This document shows, one piece after another, positions 1 through 6,741 of a stretch of DNA of 8,561 nucleotides. Where the stretch lies: the IMG/VR virus record IMGVR_UViG_2778261354_000018, positions 1 through 8,561 of that record. One strand, 5' to 3'. Position 1 is the stretch's first letter. Each line of letters starts with the position of its first letter. The DNA comes from a virus (taxonomy: Duplodnaviria > Heunggongvirae > Uroviricota > Caudoviricetes). A program made the translations under genes and the position numbers. Below the pieces are notes generated by a model. That model was not told the origin of the DNA, searched no databases, and saw only the letters and a program-made list of their open reading frames with translations.

Positions 1-264
1 ATGCTGCCGCAGCATAGCGATATTGAAATAGCCTGGTATGCTTCGATACAGCAGGAGCCGAATGGCTGGAAGACCGTCACCACACAGTTCCACATCCAGG
101 AATTCAGTGAGTATATTGCGCCACTGCAGGATGCTGTAGATCTGGAAATCGCAACGGAGGAAGAAAGATCGTTGCTGGAGGCATGGAATAAATATCGGGT
201 ATTGTTGAATCATGTTGATACAACAGTAGCAGCGGATGTCGAATGGCCAGTAGCCCCACAATAA
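1..264 (+). CDS. tfa: Tail fibre assembly protein (Tfa-like), C-terminal part; 5' end lies outside the window
   Basis: The C-terminal residues ([51 protein letters not shown]) closely match the conserved C-terminus of lambda Tfa / P2 gpG-type tail fibre assembly proteins as I recall them. The ATG at position 1 is probably internal and the ORF is open to the window edge. Stop TAA at 262-264. Confidence 0.8.
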
Positions 265-270
265 AAAGAA

Positions 271-300
271 AAAGCCATCGACAGAAATATCGATGGCTTT
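271..300. terminator. Hairpin between convergent tfa (+) and acetyltransferase (-); likely intrinsic terminator, strongest for the minus-strand transcript
   Basis: Perfect inverted repeat AAAGCCATCGA (271-281) / TCGATGGCTTT (290-300) with an 8-nt loop. On the minus strand the stem is followed by a T-rich run (TTTTCTTTTTATT, complement of 258-270). On the plus strand the tail is only moderately T-rich. Confidence 0.6.
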
Positions 301-307
301 ATGTACT

Positions 308-880
308 CTATTTATACAATACAACACCGCTCTTTTTAGTTATATATGTGCAGTTAGACGGTATATCTTTATTTATGAAGGACATTGCACCAATTTTAAC
401 ATTATCGCCTATGGTGAAACCGGAACCAAGTATAAAACAATGCGCCCCAATGTCCACATTGTTACCAATAATCACGTGGTCATGTTCATTGCATGATTGA
501 CTGCGGCCAATCGTGGTGTTTTGCCTGATTGTTAGATTATCACCGATAATCGCTGTGCTGGTGACAACAATGCCTGTATGATGAAGAATTGTAAGCCCCT
601 TGCCAATTGTTAGCCCAAGGCCAAGATCGCATCCATATTCGTTAAGCAATCTACGATTGATTTTTTTTGCCGCTTTTTTAGTTAATTTACCTCCATGGAT
701 GAACATCTCGTTAGCCAGTCTCCACCAAAAAAGATAATTTCGCGATCGTGATCTTTTCTCTCTTAAAAGCCTCCATATGGTCATATTGTCACGACGTATT
801 ACTTCTGCTTTCCAGAATTTTTTTAAATCAGTAGAGTTTCCAAACAAAACAAAGTGAATAGCCATTAAGTAAGATAACAC
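308..880 (-). CDS. Hexapeptide-repeat (left-handed beta-helix) acetyltransferase, CysE/WcaB/NodL-like; AT-rich moron
   Basis: Tandem [LIV]-G-x-x-x-x hexapeptide repeats (IGDNLT IRQNTT IGRSQS ... IGNNVD IGAHCF ILGSGF TIGDNV KIGAMSF) and an overall WcaB/serine-acetyltransferase-like layout. Stop TAG at 310-308. Start is uncertain: GTG at 880-878 lies 6 nt downstream of an AAGGAG Shine-Dalgarno and is preferred; alternatives are ATG at 865-863 or the ORF-track ATG at 913, which has no SD and sits only about 12 nt from the predicted transcription start. Region is strongly AT-rich compared with the flanking tail genes. Confidence 0.8.
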   Translation of the reverse strand: MLSYLMAIHFVLFGNSTDLKKFWKAEVIRRDNMTIWRLLREKRSRSRNYLFWWRLANEMFIHGGKLTKKAAKKINRRLLNEYGCDLGLGLTIGKGLTILHHTGIVVTSTAIIGDNLTIRQNTTIGRSQSCNEHDHVIIGNNVDIGAHCFILGSGFTIGDNVKIGAMSFINKDIPSNCTYITKKSGVVLYK

Positions 881-931
881 GATAATCTCCTTAATTATTA
901 TTTCAGACCACAAACGTTATAAGGTTAAGAG

Positions 932-1025: not shown

Positions 1026-1490
1026 TCACACAAGTACCGAAAGGTTATTAAGCGCCCCTTTAACGTTATTCGCCAGATCGCCAAGTGACGAGGACTGGAG
1101 GCGCTCACGCAAATCTTCATTCACACGCTGAAAGGTCACCGTAAACTCTATCTTCCTGGCCCTGCCATAGCGATCGAGTTCTGAGCGCGTGGTCTGTAAC
1201 GAGGTTATGACGTACATCCCGTAAATCTGCCCGACACCATCAATCAGTGGCCATGGACGCCCCGCATACGCCTGAGTTGTCAGTGCCGTAAGCGAGACTT
1301 CACCGCCTGTTATTTCCGGGTAGAGAAGACCGGAAAGCGTGATGGTATCGTCACCCGCACCGATATACTGCCAGCTTGCCGAGCGGTTGATTCGCTCGTT
1401 CTTTACATGCCGCCAGTTACGGGACTGCTGTATTTGTTGGTGTGGCAGTTTGCTTAGCTGAAAAACAAACATGCCGTAAATCATCATCAT
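1026..1490 (-). CDS. U: Phage tail protein U (P2 gpU family)
   Basis: Translation (MMMIYGMFVFQLSKLPHQQIQQSRNWRH...GAGDDTITLSGLLYPEITGG...) resembles P2 gpU as I recall it. Several clustered starts exist (GTG 1499, ATG 1496, 1490, 1487, 1484). ATG at 1490 is 8 nt after an AGGAG that overlaps the T stop codon (TAGGAG), so it is preferred. Stop TGA at 1028-1026. Confidence 0.85.
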   Translation of the reverse strand: MMMIYGMFVFQLSKLPHQQIQQSRNWRHVKNERINRSASWQYIGAGDDTITLSGLLYPEITGGEVSLTALTTQAYAGRPWPLIDGVGQIYGMYVITSLQTTRSELDRYGRARKIEFTVTFQRVNEDLRERLQSSSLGDLANNVKGALNNLSVLV

Positions 1491-1501
1491 AGCCATCACT
1501 C

Positions 1502-4354
1502 CTAATCACGATCGCGGAAGCTGTTTATGCCACCGGACTGTCTGCGAATTTCTTCACGTACCGCCTCCCCCACCATTCTGGCAAGGTCGCGCGGATTCTG
1601 TGTAACCACGTTATGAAGGTGAACGTGAATTTCCCCATCAAACACAGGCGACGGCGCAGGCGCAGATGCACGCGATGCCGAACCCGATGATGGCGAAACC
1701 GGTGCCCACTGCTTAACCTCCACAGGACGGGAAGTATCCGGGGAAACAACCGGAGACACGGGTGAAAGCGCTGGCACAGGCGGAAGCCCGGGGGCAACAG
1801 TCGGTTCATTCCACTGCCCACGAACGGCCAGCGCGCGGGGGAGATTTTTAAACACGATATCGCCGGGGCCGATACGCTTACGGGCTTCCTGAAGCATACC
1901 CGACGTATTGCCTTCGATACCCTTGAGCCTGCGAAGAACGCCACTGGTACCGTCGTTTATGACAGAAGGCTTGCCGCCATTTTCATCATTACCCCCTTTG
2001 CCTCCCTTATCTCCATTGCCATCAACTGGTTTGGTGATAATGGCATTAACATCACCCTGAAGCAGGGAGAGCTTGCCCTGAAGAAGCGAAGCCCGCTGTG
2101 CATCCTCAAGTTTCCGTCGCGCCCTTTCCGCTTCATCTGGCAACACGCCCAGTTTTTCCAGTACCCAGGCAAGCCCGTCCATCAGCGCCTTCATAGGTGT
2201 AAGTGCGAGCGATATCGCCCCGCTGAGCACGCGACCAAAAGTTTCCCCGGCCGATGTACACCGTTCAAGAGATTCATTACTGGCCTGAACCGGCGTGAGC
2301 AACCGGGTAAACCAGTCGAACACCGTGGACACCGCACCCGATACCAGATCAAACAGCGGCGCAAACTGCGCGATACTTTCACGAACAGGCGCAAGGCCAG
2401 CCCACAGCGCCCGGAATGTGCCGAGCATGAAGGCCTTAACCTGTTCCCAGTGACGCCATATGAGCAGCGCCCCACCGGCAAGGGCAGCAATCACGAGACC
2501 AACAGGACTGAGAAGACCGGCAAGCGCCCCGCCCAGCACCGAAAACGCACCGGATACCATCCCCCACAGTGCCGGAAGTCCGGACAGGCGAAGGACAAGA
2601 CCACTGACGCCGGTTGCAACGGAGGAAAGCCCGCCACCAAGAAGCGCAGAGCCAAGCTGAAGTTTTGCAAAAACCCCCGTCAGCAATCCACCACCGACAG
2701 ACAGCGCGCCTATGGCCGTTGTGGCCGCAAGCACGCCCCCCACGGTAAGGGTCAGTGTGCGTACAAGCTGCGGGTTTTCCTGAATCCACGACCTGAAACG
2801 TTCGCCCACAGAAGCAACAGCCTGTACAAGCTCGCGGATATCATCAGTAACCAGCGACACAACATCACTGCGTATACCGGAGAAGACGCCAGACAGACGA
2901 TCGGCATCACCGCCGAGGTTATCCCGCAGGACATCCCCCATTCGCCGGGCGGTTCCCTGAACCTGTCCCATACGGTCTGATACCGTTGCCAGCGAGCGGA
3001 GAAAATCCGGGATCTGGTCAACGGCAAGATCTTCAATGGGTGTGCCGAACAGCGCTATCGCCGCATTAGCCCGTTCTGCCGGATCCTGAATCTTCAGCAG
3101 CCCGGCAGCCGTTCGCTGCATTGCCTCGCGTGCAGCTGCGCCTCCGCTGGCAATCGCTGACGACATTCTTTCAGCGTTAAGACCAATCATCTCATAGGCT
3201 TCAACGCTTGCTTTGGACATATCCGAACCGCGAATACTGAATTCCTTGACGGCATCGCCGGTTTTATCCAGGGCGAATTTTCCCTGCTGTGCCATGCTGA
3301 CAAGCAGCGTCATGGTTTCAGAGCCGGAAAGCCCCATATTGCGGAAGTGCGTGGAATACTCATGCAGAATTTCAGGAAGTTCAGCGCGCATTTCGGCAGA
3401 CATTTTCTGCATCCCTGCCGCCATCAGGTCGACCGCCTCCCCGGCATTTGCGGCAAGCCCGTTTTTCAGCATGATTCCGGCAGCCTGAACCTGTTCAGCC
3501 ACACTACCGCCGGTGACCTGAGCAAGATCCAGCGCCTGCCGTGTCACCCGTTCGAGCTCTTCAGTCCCCACCGTACCCAGTGAGCCAAGCGTGCTTTGCG
3601 TCGCAGCTGCCGCCTCTGAAATCATCGCAATATCCGTTGCAACACCCGACGCCCGGATATTCTGAATCATCCGGCTGTAGCGCTGCCCGTCATCCGCACT
3701 GCCGCCACTCTGTGCCGCAATAAGCGCGCCCTGCCGTTGCTCTTCAACAACAGGCGCAACCGCATGTCCGGCGGCGTACAGACCAGCACTGCCCGCCGCC
3801 ATGGCAAACGCTCCGCGCTGGCTTAGTTTACCGGCGATATCATGAACACGATCGTAACGTTGCTGTGCCTGCGTGACGCGCGAAAGCTGAGCCTGCTGGC
3901 GTTCAAGCTGATCGTTGTATTCCTGCGTTCGCCTGATTGCTTCCTCCACAGCGCGGTTACTTCCGTCAGCCCGTATGCCGTGGGCTTCCAGTTCGCGACC
4001 GGCCTCCCGTAATCGGGACTGGTGAAGGGAGTACACAGTATTAAGGCGCTCAACCTTTGCGGTCAGCGCCCGGAGAGTTTCCTGCTGCTTTTCCGTCAGT
4101 GCTGTGCCGGTGCGCTGTGCTTCCTGAAGGCGCTGAAGTCGCGCACGCGCATCATTCAGACTGTTTTCAGTCGAAGCGACCTGCTGACGGGCACGGGAAA
4201 ACGCATCACTGCTTCGCTGGAGTGACTTAAGCGCGTTCTGTGTGGACGAAAGGGATTCAGAAAGCGCGCCGGTCATTTCCCGGGCGCGCCTGACAGGTTG
4301 AGTGAGACGGTCGACCGCAGTGAGGGCTACACGTATCTGGAGATTATTACTCAT
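1502..4354 (-). CDS. T: Tail tape measure protein (P2 gpT family), about 950 aa
   Basis: Long ORF with coiled-coil-like N-terminal region, central Gly/Ala-rich hydrophobic segments and a Pro/Ser-rich C-terminal region, sitting between E/E' and U as in P2. Start placed at ATG 4354-4352 (MSNNLQIRV...), which overlaps the end of the E' frame (gATGAGTAA). The ORF-track start at 4408 is an upstream in-frame extension. Stop TAG at 1504-1502. Confidence 0.9.
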   Translation of the reverse strand: MSNNLQIRVALTAVDRLTQPVRRAREMTGALSESLSSTQNALKSLQRSSDAFSRARQQVASTENSLNDARARLQRLQEAQRTGTALTEKQQETLRALTAKVERLNTVYSLHQSRLREAGRELEAHGIRADGSNRAVEEAIRRTQEYNDQLERQQAQLSRVTQAQQRYDRVHDIAGKLSQRGAFAMAAGSAGLYAAGHAVAPVVEEQRQGALIAAQSGGSADDGQRYSRMIQNIRASGVATDIAMISEAAAATQSTLGSLGTVGTEELERVTRQALDLAQVTGGSVAEQVQAAGIMLKNGLAANAGEAVDLMAAGMQKMSAEMRAELPEILHEYSTHFRNMGLSGSETMTLLVSMAQQGKFALDKTGDAVKEFSIRGSDMSKASVEAYEMIGLNAERMSSAIASGGAAAREAMQRTAAGLLKIQDPAERANAAIALFGTPIEDLAVDQIPDFLRSLATVSDRMGQVQGTARRMGDVLRDNLGGDADRLSGVFSGIRSDVVSLVTDDIRELVQAVASVGERFRSWIQENPQLVRTLTLTVGGVLAATTAIGALSVGGGLLTGVFAKLQLGSALLGGGLSSVATGVSGLVLRLSGLPALWGMVSGAFSVLGGALAGLLSPVGLVIAALAGGALLIWRHWEQVKAFMLGTFRALWAGLAPVRESIAQFAPLFDLVSGAVSTVFDWFTRLLTPVQASNESLERCTSAGETFGRVLSGAISLALTPMKALMDGLAWVLEKLGVLPDEAERARRKLEDAQRASLLQGKLSLLQGDVNAIITKPVDGNGDKGGKGGNDENGGKPSVINDGTSGVLRRLKGIEGNTSGMLQEARKRIGPGDIVFKNLPRALAVRGQWNEPTVAPGLPPVPALSPVSPVVSPDTSRPVEVKQWAPVSPSSGSASRASAPAPSPVFDGEIHVHLHNVVTQNPRDLARMVGEAVREEIRRQSGGINSFRDRD

Positions 4355-4894
4355 CGTTATGATTCCCGGCTCTGGCAGCCGCCCGCTCTCGCCAGGCAAC
4401 AACCTCACCAGGACTCATACCGAATATCTCTGCGGGCGACCAGTTAAAAACAACAGCGATATCAGCAACAAGCTCTTCGATATCGTCAAACAGGAGGCGA
4501 ATTACATCACACCCGTATTCATCTTTTTCTTGCCGGGCAAGGCCTTCGGCGCGAAAAAATGCGTGGCCGCCGTGGAAAGCGCCCCGAAATCCTCCGTGCG
4601 CATGGTCGACAACTCCGCTTCAGTGAGACGGGGCTCTGTAACACGAGCGAGATAAACGCACATCGCGTTAAAGTTCAGGTTGTACAGGTGAGCCAGAGAC
4701 AGACCACGCAGCGAACCACTCTGACGGGCACGCTCGCCAATCTTCACATGTGTAATAATCTGTTCGCCACGGATGACCGGGTTTGTTAATTCAATGAGCT
4801 CACCGTTATAGGCAACCTCATTACCATCAGCAGCATCGAAGTCGTCGACGTTATCAGCACCGACAACCGGCATTTCGTTTTGTTTTTTTGACAT
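4347..4894 (-). CDS. E': E+E' fusion made by programmed -1 ribosomal frameshift (tail assembly chaperone, long form)
   Basis: After the slippery site, the -1 frame stays open for about 68 codons (RAEGLARQEKDEYGCDVIRLLFDDIEELVADIAVVFNWSPAEIFGMSPGEVVAWRERAAARAGNHNDE) and ends at TAA 4349-4347, overlapping the T start codon. Frame arithmetic is consistent with a -1 shift. This mirrors the E/E' arrangement known in P2 and the G/GT arrangement in lambda. Confidence 0.65.
4502..4894 (-). CDS. E: Tail assembly chaperone E (zero-frame product)
   Basis: Position between FII and T matches P2 gene E. AGGAG Shine-Dalgarno 9 nt upstream of ATG 4894-4892. Contains the slippery heptamer T_TTT_TTC near its 3' end. 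Stop TAA at 4504-4502. Confidence 0.75.
   Translation of the reverse strand: MSKKQNEMPVVGADNVDDFDAADGNEVAYNGELIELTNPVIRGEQIITHVKIGERARQSGSLRGLSLAHLYNLNFNAMCVYLARVTEPRLTEAELSTMRTEDFGALSTAATHFFAPKALPGKKKMNTGVM
4553..4559 (-). other. Slippery heptamer T_TTT_TTC (X_XXY_YYZ) for the E/E' -1 frameshift
   Basis: Minus-strand codons CAT TTT TTC (4561-4553) in the E zero frame. Plus strand reads gaaaaaa at 4553-4559. Confidence 0.6.
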
Positions 4895-4939
4895 CGTGAA
4901 ATTCTCCTGGCGGCCACACGACCGCCGTCAGTCAGTTAA

Positions 4940-5452
4940 TCAGCCAAGCCCCAGCATGGAGCGGGTGCGGTCAGGCAACACATCCTTGCCATCAACGCGC
5001 CAGATGAAGTTCAGCACGTCGATTTCAATAACATCGCTGTTATCAACGCTGAGCTTGTACCAGGTGCATTTCATCGCGTAGGTATGTTCGGTATCCTCAC
5101 CCTGTTTGGCTTCGCCCTTGTCGATTTCGACAATGCGCCCACGGGCTTCAATATCGACGTACTCAATACCCTCTTCGGAATAGTATTCACCCGAGAAGCG
5201 CACACGTACCGCATCAATTCCGGCAGCATATTTGGCAAAGATGTGACGGTCCACGCCGCCAACCGCAAAGGAGAGATCCAGCGCACCGTCATCAAGACCG
5301 AGATCCACCGCCGCAGAGCCTGGCATACCCGCACCGCGATACGCTTCAGTCTTGCGGGTCAGCTTGGGCGGAGTGAAGGAGGTCACCTTACCCAGCTTGT
5401 TGTCACCGTCCACAAAGACGGTAAACACACGAAGTTTTTTTGGCACAGCCAT
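4940..5452 (-). CDS. FII: Tail tube protein (P2 gpFII family)
   Basis: Translation (MAVPKKLRVFTVFVDGDNKLGKVTSFTPPKLTRKTEAYRGAGMPGSAAVDLGLDDGAL...KQGEDTEH...) resembles P2 FII. GGAGG SD about 7 nt upstream. Its ATG (5452-5450) overlaps the FI stop TGA (5454-5452) as TGATG-type coupling. Confidence 0.9.
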   Translation of the reverse strand: MAVPKKLRVFTVFVDGDNKLGKVTSFTPPKLTRKTEAYRGAGMPGSAAVDLGLDDGALDLSFAVGGVDRHIFAKYAAGIDAVRVRFSGEYYSEEGIEYVDIEARGRIVEIDKGEAKQGEDTEHTYAMKCTWYKLSVDNSDVIEIDVLNFIWRVDGKDVLPDRTRSMLGLG

Positions 5453-6648
5453 CAGTTACCTCCTCCCAGAGATGCAAAAGCAGAACTGAAGAACTCGTCA
5501 GTAAACGTCTGATAAAGTTCCATGCACTCCATAGGCGGAACGGGGGTGTATTTGTAGCGAATACGCACAATACCCTGACGAAGGCTGGTTGTGTCGTTGT
5601 CGATGATATCGAACCAGCATTCCGCCCCGATAAGTTTTCCGGCCGTGACCAGCGCATCCAGTTTTGCCTTGATAGCGCTGATCGCATCCTTCGCGTTGGC
5701 TGGCGTCAACGGTGAATCAACCACCTGAAGCTGCGCCTCTGCGATAGTATCAGCCAGTTGTTGCGAGGTACGGGTGTACACCTCAAAGGTATATTCCGAC
5801 GTATCCGGCGTACGGTTACCCCAGAAACGGAAGGAGCCGTCACCCTGGTGAATAAGCGTGGTCACTTCGCTGTTATTCAGCGTATTGGCATCGCTGTTTT
5901 CATCCTGAAGCGACCAGGAGACAGGCACTGATAACCCAAGAACATTTTTCACAGGCATGTTGGAAAGCGAACGATGCCAGCCCTGTTCGTGGTCCAGTCG
6001 GGCACGAAGGCCGCACGCATACGCCGCAGCAGGGAACGTTTCGTTTTTACCTGACACCGGGTTGAAGGCGATAAAATCAGGCCACAGAAGCATGATTTCA
6101 CGCCCGGAAACCTTTTTGCGGAATGCAATGGCATCAGACGGTTTTGTGCAGCCGGGGCAGCCGGAGTACGCAAAAGCACGCATCTTTCCCGCCACCGTCA
6201 CTAGTGCCGCCGTAACGGCGTCAGATTCAAGGCCGGGCGCGGCAAGAATGCGCGGGCGGTAACCAATACCTTCCATCTGTTCAGCAACAAGAAAGGCCTG
6301 CATCCCTGAATAGCTGCCGTCTTCTTCCGTGGTACCAATGACAAGCTGATCCTGCGTTTTGTTTTCCGGGCCTTCCTGAGCTGCCGCCACGCGAACGACA
6401 ATTACCCGGGTGCTTACCTGGTCAGAAATAGCCTTAAGAGACTTGTAAAGGGTACCTGTTTCCCCGGCCTTGCCCAGAACCGAAGATACGCGGGTAAGCA
6501 GTACCGGCTTGTTAAGAGGGAACTGTTCGGCATCCGCATCATCTGCAACGGCAACAATACCAATGACGCTGGAATCAACGTCATTAATTGCCGTCACCAG
6601 GTCGGTATTTTCCCTGACGCGCACACCGTGAAATCGTGTTTCAGCCAT
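5452..6648 (-). CDS. FI: Tail sheath protein (P2 gpFI family)
   Basis: Translation (MAETRFHGVRV...DADAEQFPLNKPVLLTRV...GLRARLDHEQGWHRSLSNMPV...FRFWGNRT...YKYTPVPPME) resembles P2 FI sheath protein throughout. Start placed at ATG 6648-6646, preceded by GGTGA at 5-nt spacing. In-frame alternatives are ATG 6660 and GTG 6663. Confidence 0.9.
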   Translation of the reverse strand: MAETRFHGVRVRENTDLVTAINDVDSSVIGIVAVADDADAEQFPLNKPVLLTRVSSVLGKAGETGTLYKSLKAISDQVSTRVIVVRVAAAQEGPENKTQDQLVIGTTEEDGSYSGMQAFLVAEQMEGIGYRPRILAAPGLESDAVTAALVTVAGKMRAFAYSGCPGCTKPSDAIAFRKKVSGREIMLLWPDFIAFNPVSGKNETFPAAAYACGLRARLDHEQGWHRSLSNMPVKNVLGLSVPVSWSLQDENSDANTLNNSEVTTLIHQGDGSFRFWGNRTPDTSEYTFEVYTRTSQQLADTIAEAQLQVVDSPLTPANAKDAISAIKAKLDALVTAGKLIGAECWFDIIDNDTTSLRQGIVRIRYKYTPVPPMECMELYQTFTDEFFSSAFASLGGGN

Positions 6649-6723
6649 ACGATTCACCATCACTTGTGTTTAATCTCGCCTGAATAATCCACTACTGGCG
6701 GGCAGCCTTCACGTGATGCGGGT

Positions 6724-6741
6724 TGTGTGGATTTTTTTACA
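6724..6741. promoter_or_regulatory. TGT-N12-ACA dyad resembling the Ogr/Delta activator site of P2-type late promoters, in the divergent FI/D intergenic region
   Basis: TGTgtggatttttttACA at 6724-6741. Its centre (about 6732) is roughly 55 bp from plausible transcription starts in both directions: about 6788 for D, with a -10-like GATGAT at 6776-6781, and about 6677 for FI. A single match of this short motif could occur by chance, so this is a candidate only. Confidence 0.4.

Follow-up and report, generated by a model that had tools for sequence, protein, structure and literature searches.

Some siphophage tail tape measure proteins (TMPs) carry a peptidoglycan hydrolase, a peptidase or a receptor-binding module, and an initial annotation of the 8,561-nt stretch of phage DNA analysed here (the window) had hinted that the low-complexity tracts of one long reading frame, gene T, might likewise contain extra domains. 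We ask whether gene T encodes more than an ordinary TMP, and what its compositional biases represent.

Identity and genomic context of gene T

The ORF listing and translation give gene T a product of 950 aa plus stop (ATG at 4354-4352, stop codon at 1502-1504). An upstream in-frame GTG at 4408 could lengthen the ORF; the start at 4354 is supported because the TAA of the E+E' frame overlaps this ATG, as in P2. The protein matches PF10145 (PhageMin_Tail; 68.3 bits, cutoff 33.2, aa 239-437, nt 3044-3640), TIGR01760 (the TP901-family TMP model; 46.9 bits, cutoff 28.8, aa 212-545) and PHROG 28 (phrog_28; E 1.8e-120, spanning aa 1-948), and beyond these three TMP models only coiled-coil families are hit. 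The identification as a TMP made at the outset is thereby upheld, and we found no evidence that contradicts it. T is identical to a protein on record in GCA_002461255.1 (GenBank), and ten E. coli proteins are 97-98 % identical to it, seven of which their sources annotate as 'phage tail tape measure protein'. Gene T almost certainly encodes the TMP of a P2-like temperate myophage (a prophage) of E. coli; as an ordinary P2-like TMP, it is already known. Six ORFs of 91-176 aa overlap T on either strand; they have no Pfam match and were dismissed as spurious products of high G+C.

T occupies the canonical slot in the order sheath (FI), tube (FII), chaperone E/E+E', T and gpU (Table 1). The E' frame, read after a -1 frameshift, matches PF06528 (Phage_P2_GpE, E 4.4e-14) and ends at TAA 4347-4349, and gpU is given in GenBank as a protein of 154 aa, equivalent to a start at ATG 1490. 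A one-strand FI-FII-E-E'-T-U-D operon is absent: FI to U lie on the minus strand, and D and ogr, on the plus strand, diverge from FI. Unlike P2, in which all of these genes share one strand, this lineage does not co-transcribe D with T, and the same inversion of the FI-U block relative to D/ogr is seen in Escherichia phage PhiR44_2 and in prophages of E. coli, Klebsiella and Dickeya. Neither Rfam nor a tRNA scan matched anything in the window. An acetyltransferase moron and a hok toxin were also noted outside T.

Table 1. Positions of gene T, its segments and neighboring genes in the window
Feature	Protein positions (aa)	Window positions (nt)	Strand	Basis
Gene T, tail tape measure protein	950 aa	1502..4354	-	ORF, family models, P2 gpT alignment
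N-terminal coiled-coil region, predicted head-proximal end	~20-180	3815..4297	-	periodicity, AlphaFold
Central compact helical domain, holds PhageMin_Tail match	~200-470	2945..3757	-	Pfam, AlphaFold
Gly/Ala/Leu-rich hydrophobic core, membrane-type helices	531-640	2435..2764	-	hydropathy, conservation
Amphipathic helical region	641-765	2060..2434	-	periodicity, predicted helices
Gly/Lys/Asn-rich spacer (core GNGDKGGKGGNDENGGKP, nt 1967-2020)	766-812	1919..2059	-	composition, AlphaFold
Conserved linear motif block, ...NT..L.E..KRIGPGDIVFKNLPRALAVRG	813-848	1811..1918	-	conservation
Pro/Ser/Val-rich spacer	849-905	1640..1810	-	composition, AlphaFold
Conserved C-terminal end, FxGEIHVHLHNVxTQNPRELA...SFRDRD	906-950	1505..1639	-	conservation
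E, tail assembly chaperone gene		4502-4894	-	
E+E' (combined with E), -1 frameshift at slip site T_TTT_TTC 4553-4559		4347..4894	-	-1 frame translation
gpU tail protein, directly downstream of T		1026..1499	-	PF06995 Phage_P2_GpU, E 4.7e-41
gpD baseplate hub protein		6802..7947	+	PF05954 Phage_GPD, E 1.1e-16

P2 gpT (NP_046782, 815 aa) likewise follows E/E+E' and precedes U, and the E/E+E'/T layout is that of P2 (PMC3091744). It aligns with T aa 1-743 at 25 % identity (E 6e-44), a value inside the 25-42 % range reported for P2 gpT compared with TMPs from phages accepted as P2-like (PMC3091744). The two proteins share an N-terminal MSNN..., a hydrophobic segment (aa ~533-616 in P2 gpT) and the W/F/C/G motifs that follow it. 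Alignability ends at aa 743, within the amphipathic region; the last ~207 aa of T are unaligned, and P2 gpT, which is 135 aa shorter, lacks the G/K/N spacer, the GPGDIVFKNLP block, the P/S spacer and any counterpart of the EIHVHLH...SFRDRD end, save for an aligned Pro-Gly. The gpT of the isolated phage PhiR44_2 (XSB42730, 935 aa) is 38 % identical to T, and this phage shares T's gene order and the position of the hydrophobic segment. Its two C-terminal motifs are 72 % (aa 813-848) and 69 % (aa 906-950) identical to those of T, whereas identity drops to 22 % in the central domain (aa 191-480), where PhiR44_2 gpT is nearer to P2 gpT (36 %). Judging from these identities, T is a mosaic, with its central domain exchanged relative to PhiR44_2. 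To the same family belong TMPs from prophages of E. coli, Citrobacter, Dickeya, Klebsiella, Raoultella and Erwinia, which share the C-terminal motifs and the placement of the hydrophobic segments but differ in spacer length.

Architecture of the protein

T is predicted to be mostly alpha-helical, with helices across nearly all of aa 4-765. The AlphaFold model of the full-length protein has a mean pLDDT of 57, and its confidence is low except at aa 30-130 and 200-470, as expected because a TMP is structured only inside the tube. In the N-terminal coiled coil, hydrophobicity has a power of 146 at period 3.5 over aa 20-180 (9 +/- 9 in shuffles), long helices are modelled at aa 4-81, 88-124 and 133-180, and the length of the region is near constant (178-181 aa in 27 relatives). 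This region gives weak matches to SMC, Rad50 and other coiled-coil families, including HmpF in NCBIfam (aa 13-178); PF28019, which is listed for some T homologues, turned out to be a weak HmpF match. The central domain consists of many short helices with pLDDT mostly 74-91, a level reached elsewhere only in part of the N-terminal coiled coil. It is the best conserved part of the family, with the length of aa 181-530 steady at 349-350 aa among the 27 relatives, and Foldseek gave no significant match in the PDB.

The initial annotation had described a protein of roughly 950 aa with three low-complexity tracts; all the peptides that it quoted are present, and the biases exceed chance. The first tract contains GGVLAATTAIG...GVSGLVL (aa 539-588). 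Of the 97 residues in aa 536-632, 80 are G/A/L/V/S, as against 50 % in the whole of T (binomial p 5e-11), and only two are charged. Minima of entropy in 25-aa windows, at aa 567-593 and 605-632, lie below the 5th percentile for minima in 500 shuffles, and a hydropathy scan places Kyte-Doolittle 19-aa windows of >= 1.6 at aa 533-559 and 603-634. All 27 relatives, PhiR44_2 T and P2 gpT have matching hydrophobic segments at this position. A 27-sequence profile of T also matches, marginally, the hydrophobic part of TMP chains in phage structures (9m8o_M, 2.6e-5; 8kea_G, 6.9e-5). By all these signs, the Gly/Ala/Leu core is the conserved membrane-type segment usual in TMPs. Its length varies from 96 to 170 aa across the family, with a dN/dS of 0.23. 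The amphipathic region behind it (period-3.5 power of 110 over aa 640-760, against 9 +/- 9 in shuffles) has a dN/dS of 0.02, and W636, F642, G645, W681, F682, C699, G703 and F706 are invariant.

The remaining 185 aa are two spacers alternating with two motifs. In the first spacer, where GNGDKGGKGGNDENGGKP lies at aa 779-796, G/K/N/D account for 17/20 residues of aa 777-796 (p 9e-10), and both AlphaFold runs give coil with pLDDT 24-46. The segment aa 746-812 measures 50-91 aa in relatives, and the spacer holds three of the four indels that separate T from a 92 %-identical homologue, including the loss of GKGGND. The motif block that follows has a column conservation of 0.81, with T817, P830, G831, D832, I833, F835 and P839 invariant among the 27 relatives, and P830 and G831 remaining so when P2 gpT is added; dN against the 92 %-identical homologue is 0, and neither AlphaFold run gives the block a confident fold. 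The second spacer is rich in proline and serine (24/53 residues of aa 852-904, p 1.5e-9) and is modelled as coil, with pLDDT of about 26-33 when the whole protein is modelled and 46-54 when the C-terminal part is modelled alone. It ranges from 19 to 103 aa in relatives, its column conservation is 0.38-0.43, and its dN/dS of 0.43 is the highest in the gene. The C-terminal end measures 45-50 aa in all complete relatives, has a dN/dS of 0.06, and is predicted to be helical at aa 921-940, where pLDDT reaches 87. AlphaFold places disorder at aa 766-803 and 827-915, and the G/K/N and P/S tracts are predicted to be disordered, indel-tolerant spacers that part two conserved short motifs.

Variation and selection along T

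Among the 27 relatives, all length variation of the family lies within the three flagged tracts, the first 530 aa being constant, and the tracts are also the least conserved segments. The expectation that low-complexity parts are where TMPs diverge therefore describes this family exactly. The tracts remain in frame in 27 homologues, and the pairwise dN/dS of T against its 92 %-identical homologue is 0.09 overall, which indicates that they are coding and not artefacts of sequencing or frame. Purifying selection acts along the entire gene and is relaxed in the P/S tract.

The differences in length could be read as more than neutral drift of spacers, namely as hot spots of an arms race with superinfection-exclusion proteins that target the TMP or with inner-membrane factors of the host. 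Close relatives do vary, both in the hydrophobic region and in the spacers, T is a mosaic by its central domain, and T4 Imm is reported to bind the T4 TMP and to block infection. However, every segment has a dN/dS below 1, so that positive selection in the tracts is unsupported, no meaningful tandem or dispersed DNA repeats underlie them, no targeted mutagenesis machinery is associated with them, and the indel tolerance of disordered linkers is a simpler explanation; we consider the arms race unlikely. It is doubtful, too, that the length polymorphism reflects selection for escape from TMP-binding superinfection-exclusion proteins or for the matching of different inner-membrane entry factors; were it so, the C-terminal module, meaning the lineage-specific GPGDIVFKNLP and EIHVHLH...SFRDRD motifs, would be a way of docking in the hub unlike that of P2.

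The C-terminal ~210-360 aa might instead be separable from the rest of T, stemming from a downstream gene fused to it, from internal initiation or from proteolytic release. Two PHROG families, with profiles 233 and 388 positions long, span only aa 724-950 and 587-950, respectively, and most of the 38 representatives that match aa 741-950 are short (72-323 aa). The short matches, however, hit arbitrary sub-ranges of the query, as would be expected of genes cut at the ends of short metagenome contigs, and the full-length matches are TMPs of 929-1004 aa. Complete relatives are all one unbroken ORF with the same order of blocks, and purifying selection runs across the junction, which makes a separable C-terminus very unlikely. 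C-terminal processing of T after assembly may nevertheless occur.

Search for additional domains

Neither an enzymatic or other extra domain nor, in particular, a recognisable hydrolase or peptidase domain was found in T with Pfam, NCBIfam, PHROGs, PDB sequence and profile searches, Foldseek and AlphaFold. A PDB sequence search with the single protein gave no matches, and all matches of the 27-sequence profile were marginal and fell on coiled coils or on TMP chains in solved phage structures. Foldseek of the full-length model against the PDB returned nothing at E <= 0.001, the best matches, to designed helical proteins, having an E-value of 0.067. Neither P2 gpT nor any solved structure shows detectable similarity to the C-terminal 207 aa, and aa 741-950 modelled alone give four short helices, the rest coil, with a pTM of 0.21 and no globular fold. 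An exhaustive HMMER search with aa 741-950 against 1.84 billion representatives yielded 38 matches, all of them TMP C-termini or fragments, which indicates that the module occurs in no other protein context. That T carries a peptidoglycan hydrolase, peptidase or receptor-binding module in or beside its low-complexity tracts is extremely improbable: T does exceed P2 gpT in length, chiefly at the C-terminus, and the PHROGs on its last 210 aa (phrog_17114, phrog_5431 and phrog_38463) are all of 'unknown function', but every functional match in Pfam, NCBIfam and PHROG falls within TMP and coiled-coil families, the structural searches agree, and the added length is scattered over indel-prone spacers. 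The initial annotation, which had recognised nothing enzymatic by eye, was correct on this point; its hint of extra domains was not borne out, the scans having given standard TMP architecture only. These compositional oddities are normal for the TMP family.

Proposed function and significance

The layout of T resembles that of TMPs dissected in other phages. Dissection of the TMP of lactococcal phage TP901-1 showed its first 154 aa, its first hydrophobic region and its last 60 aa to be essential, and tail length to scale with the remainder (PMC5099701); the conserved ends and hydrophobic region of T agree with these parts, although TP901-1 is a siphophage that infects a Gram-positive host and its TMP has tandem repeats, which T lacks. 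T4 gp29 starts with a coiled coil that lies next to the end of the genome, and further has a transmembrane segment by prediction, a helical domain and a loop at its C-terminus that is bound at the distal tube/hub (10.64898/2026.03.06.709160). Its functional layout is like that of T, but there is no detectable sequence similarity, T is much longer, and the order differs in that the compact helical domain of T precedes the hydrophobic segment.

By analogy with these systems (the TP901-1 dissection, PMC5099701, and the T4 gp29 cryo-EM preprint, 10.64898/2026.03.06.709160), several copies of T would be kept soluble by E and E+E'. The two C-terminal motifs would dock, in an extended conformation, within the baseplate hub and distal tube (gpD, gpU, gpV), with gpD the presumed docking partner of the C-terminus. 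Tube and sheath would then polymerise around the helical T rod up to its N-terminal end, which would set tail length. Upon contraction T would be expelled, and the hydrophobic segment may enter the inner membrane and help to form a conduit for DNA. Under this inferred mechanism, the low-complexity tracts would be a membrane segment and flexible spacers and not extra domains. P2-like phages with TMPs of 842, 920 and 1075 aa have tails of 140, 150 and 160 nm (PMC3091744), and interpolation between such values suggests that the tail would be about 150 nm long.

The result for T matters little and opens no new question. What it provides is a confident gene assignment and a residue-level map of a P2-lineage TMP, and such a map could help in engineering tail length or building cryo-EM models for this prophage group.

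Identity and gene context of T

Genes in the window were called from its ORFs and from family scans; together they make up the tail-gene end of a P2-like prophage. T is a member of the tape measure protein (TMP) family, and the analysis shows its identity, synteny and architecture. PF10145 (PhageMin_Tail, aa 239-437) is the only Pfam family above threshold; NCBIfam places TIGR01760 ('phage tail tape measure protein') at aa 212-545, with sub-threshold coiled-coil families at aa ~12-180, and phrog_28 ('tail length tape measure protein') of PHROGs covers the whole length (1.8e-120). The alignment with P2 gpT spans T aa 1-743 at 25 % identity (E 6e-44), a typical value given the 25-42 % TMP identity between P2 and accepted P2-like phages (PMC3091744), whereas the last ~207 aa are lineage-specific. 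A protein database search returned ten E. coli proteins at 97-98 % identity, seven of them carrying the source name 'phage tail tape measure protein', and extended the family to Citrobacter, Dickeya, Erwinia, Klebsiella, Raoultella and Pectobacterium. The exact protein is present in GCA_002461255.1, where the prophage adjoins pgsA, uvrC and sdiA, and in an isolated phage, Escherichia phage PhiR44_2, the genes are laid out alike, with a gpT 38 % identical to T. With identical and near-identical proteins and an isolated-phage homologue on record, T is therefore already known and annotated; nothing is new at the level of this finding, as GenBank has the protein under the right name.

Translation from ATG 4354 gives 950 aa, and a possible upstream start lies at GTG 4408. 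Gene E contains the heptamer T_TTT_TTC (4553-4559), where a -1 shift opens a 70-aa frame that matches Phage_P2_GpE (PF06528, E 4.4e-14) and stops at TAA 4347-4349, within ATGAGTAA, overlapping the start of T. The PF06528 match is limited to this E' part, and the 0-frame E product has no Pfam or NCBIfam match. The order E, E+E', T is the same as that documented for P2 (PMC3091744), although the P2 slip site is TTTTTTG and its E has 91 aa, against 130 aa in the window. Because the E+E' frame ends over the T ATG, as in P2, the start of T is fixed at 4354, and T occupies the position that is canonical for a tape measure gene.

Genes of the window (nucleotides) and segments of T (aa, numbered from ATG 4354)
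Feature	Position	Strand	Evidence or property
Tail-fibre assembly protein, C-terminus	1-264	+	
Hexapeptide acetyltransferase	308-913	-	
gpU	1026-1499	-	
T	1502-4354	-	
Chaperone E	4502-4894	-	
Tube FII	4940-5452	-	
Sheath FI	5452-6663	-	
Hub gpD	6802-7947	+	
Ogr	7989-8291	+	
Hok-family toxin	8421-8561	+	
Coiled coil	aa ~20-180		period-3.5 hydrophobic power 146 vs 9 +/- 9 in shuffles; long helices predicted
Compact short-helix bundle	aa ~200-470		AlphaFold pLDDT mostly 74-91; most conserved region
Gly/Ala/Leu-rich core	aa 531-640		Kyte-Doolittle segments aa 533-559, 603-634
Amphipathic helices	aa 641-765		invariant aromatic, Cys, Gly positions; dN/dS 0.02
G/K/N-rich tract	aa 766-812		predicted coil
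Strongly conserved block KRIGPGDIVFKNLPRALAVRG	aa 813-848		dN 0 vs 92 % homologue
P/S tract	aa 849-905		predicted coil; 19-103 aa in relatives
Conserved end GEIHVHLHNV..NPRELA...SFRDRD	aa 906-950		one confident predicted helix

Anatomy of T and its low-complexity tracts

The initial annotation had described a hydrophobic core, a G/K/N-rich segment and a P/S/V-rich tract, and all three quoted peptides are present in T (aa 539-588, aa 779-796 and aa ~852-904), as translation and composition statistics confirm. Their compositional bias is far beyond chance (binomial p 5e-11 to 1.5e-9), two entropy minima are lower than the 5th percentile of the minima obtained from shuffles, and no DNA repeats were found beneath the tracts. 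The view that such low-complexity parts are places of divergence is quantitatively correct, with 4/4 indels relative to a 92 %-identical homologue falling in the two spacers, the G/K/N-rich and P/S tracts.

The anatomy of T is based on a 27-sequence alignment, per-segment statistics and AlphaFold, whose confident parts are confined to aa ~200-470 and part of the N-terminal coiled coil (aa ~31-130, pLDDT 64-89). Length is constant in the coiled-coil region (178-181 aa) and in aa 181-530 (349-350 aa in relatives); it ranges from 96 to 170 aa in the hydrophobic core and from 50 to 91 aa in the segment at aa 746-812. The core has 2/97 charged residues. Its hydrophobic segments have equivalents at this position in P2 gpT (aa 533-616), PhiR44_2 and all relatives, and among solved phage structures the family profile picks out TMP chains at their hydrophobic parts (9m8o_M, 8kea_G). 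The Pro-Gly of the aa 813-848 block is invariant, P2 included, and the P/S tract has the gene's highest dN/dS (0.43). That the tracts were diversified by an arms race is improbable, as the data do not need this explanation and the tests weigh against it.

When 1.84 billion cluster representatives were searched exhaustively with aa 741-950 (HMMER), 38 matched, each being either the C-terminus of a TMP of 929-1004 aa or a short fragment covering an arbitrary sub-range. This module is therefore lineage-confined, and no other protein context contains it. Modelled alone, it reaches a pTM of 0.21, with four short helices and the rest coil. Overlapping ORFs within T, on both strands, have no family match. 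A separable product from the C-terminal part of T is very unlikely; it too is not needed to explain the data, and the tests weigh against it. The initial annotation had recognised nothing enzymatic by eye, and the domain searches likewise gave the standard tape-measure architecture and nothing else: T as a single sequence found no match in the PDB, the family profile found only TMPs and coiled coils there, and Foldseek with the full model returned no PDB entry at E <= 0.001, the best being designed helical repeats and coiled coils. That T embeds an enzyme or an extra domain is very unlikely: the data do not call for one, and the Pfam, NCBIfam, PHROGs, PDB, Foldseek and AlphaFold results weigh against it.

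Inversion and mosaicism in the P2-like lineage

Relative to P2, the FI-FII-E-E'-T-U block (1026-6663, -) is inverted with respect to D/ogr (6802-8291, +), so that D is not co-transcribed with T and two divergent units take the place of the single 'FETUD' operon of P2. Because PhiR44_2, the 89 %-identical E. coli prophages beside serS, and prophages of Klebsiella and Dickeya are all arranged in this way, the layout is a trait of this P2-like lineage.

A TGT-N12-ACA dyad, TGTGTGGATTTTTTTACA, lies at 6724-6741, midway along the 138 bp that separate the divergent FI and D genes, and is retained in the E. coli SW070917 relative. Ogr-family activators bind this type of element at P2 late promoters, and the candidate dyad could serve both divergent late promoters. 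The pattern shows no excess over chance across the window (2 found, 2.1 expected), so its location alone is suggestive.

Compared with PhiR44_2 gpT (L003:9433-12237, the PhiR44_2 locus), the ends of T are 44-72 % identical, whereas the central PhageMin_Tail domain (aa 191-480, 2915-3784) is 22 % identical; the central part of PhiR44_2 gpT is nearer to that of P2 (36 %). On sequence comparison, this divergent centre between similar ends indicates that T is a mosaic, with recombination inside the tape measure gene.

Accessory genes and chromosomal sites

A low-GC (0.36-0.41) moron at 271-960 separates gpU from the tail-fibre assembly gene. It encodes a 201-aa hexapeptide-repeat acetyltransferase with sub-threshold matches to EpsC, CysE and WcaB, and has its own predicted sigma-70-like promoter (960-932, TTGAAT-17-TATAAT) and a predicted strong terminator hairpin (300-271). 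The 89 % relatives lack the moron. Window 105-412, a stretch comprising the tfa 3' end and ~105 nt of the acetyltransferase gene's 3' end, is matched at 89 % identity by phages vB_EcoM-Ro157c2YLVW and JL22, in which a serine acetyltransferase is annotated there. Surface-polysaccharide modification or lysogenic conversion is a possible role of the moron.

At the prophage end, shortly after ogr, a 46-aa Hok/Gef-family type I toxin ORF runs up to the window's last base and shares 88 % identity with the 'MokW-like host killing' regions of Stx phages; an Rfam scan of the window found no Sok and no other match. Closely related prophages of this type occupy differing chromosomal sites, at pgsA/uvrC/sdiA in the window's own genome (GCA_002461255.1, NJZR01000032.1) and at serS in the 89 % relatives (NZ_CM129862.1), and the window-bearing contig ends ~140 bp past tfa.

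Proposed role in tail assembly and ejection

By analogy, T would act as P2 gpT does and, at a greater distance, as do T4 gp29 and the TP901-1 TMP. Drawing on mutational work on TP901-1 (PMC5099701) and on a structural preprint on T4 gp29 (10.64898/2026.03.06.709160), we propose that chaperones E and E+E' would keep T soluble, while its conserved C-terminal motifs, carried on flexible Gly- and Pro/Ser-rich spacers, would take an extended peptide form on docking into the hub and distal tube (gpD, gpU, gpV). The helical rod would then be the track for tube and sheath polymerisation as far as the N-terminal coiled coil, which would end beside the DNA. Interpolation from P2-like phages (842 aa/140 nm, 920 aa/150 nm and 1075 aa/160 nm; PMC3091744) predicts a tail of ~150 nm. 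Upon contraction, T would be expelled, and its hydrophobic segment would enter the inner membrane and help to form the DNA channel.
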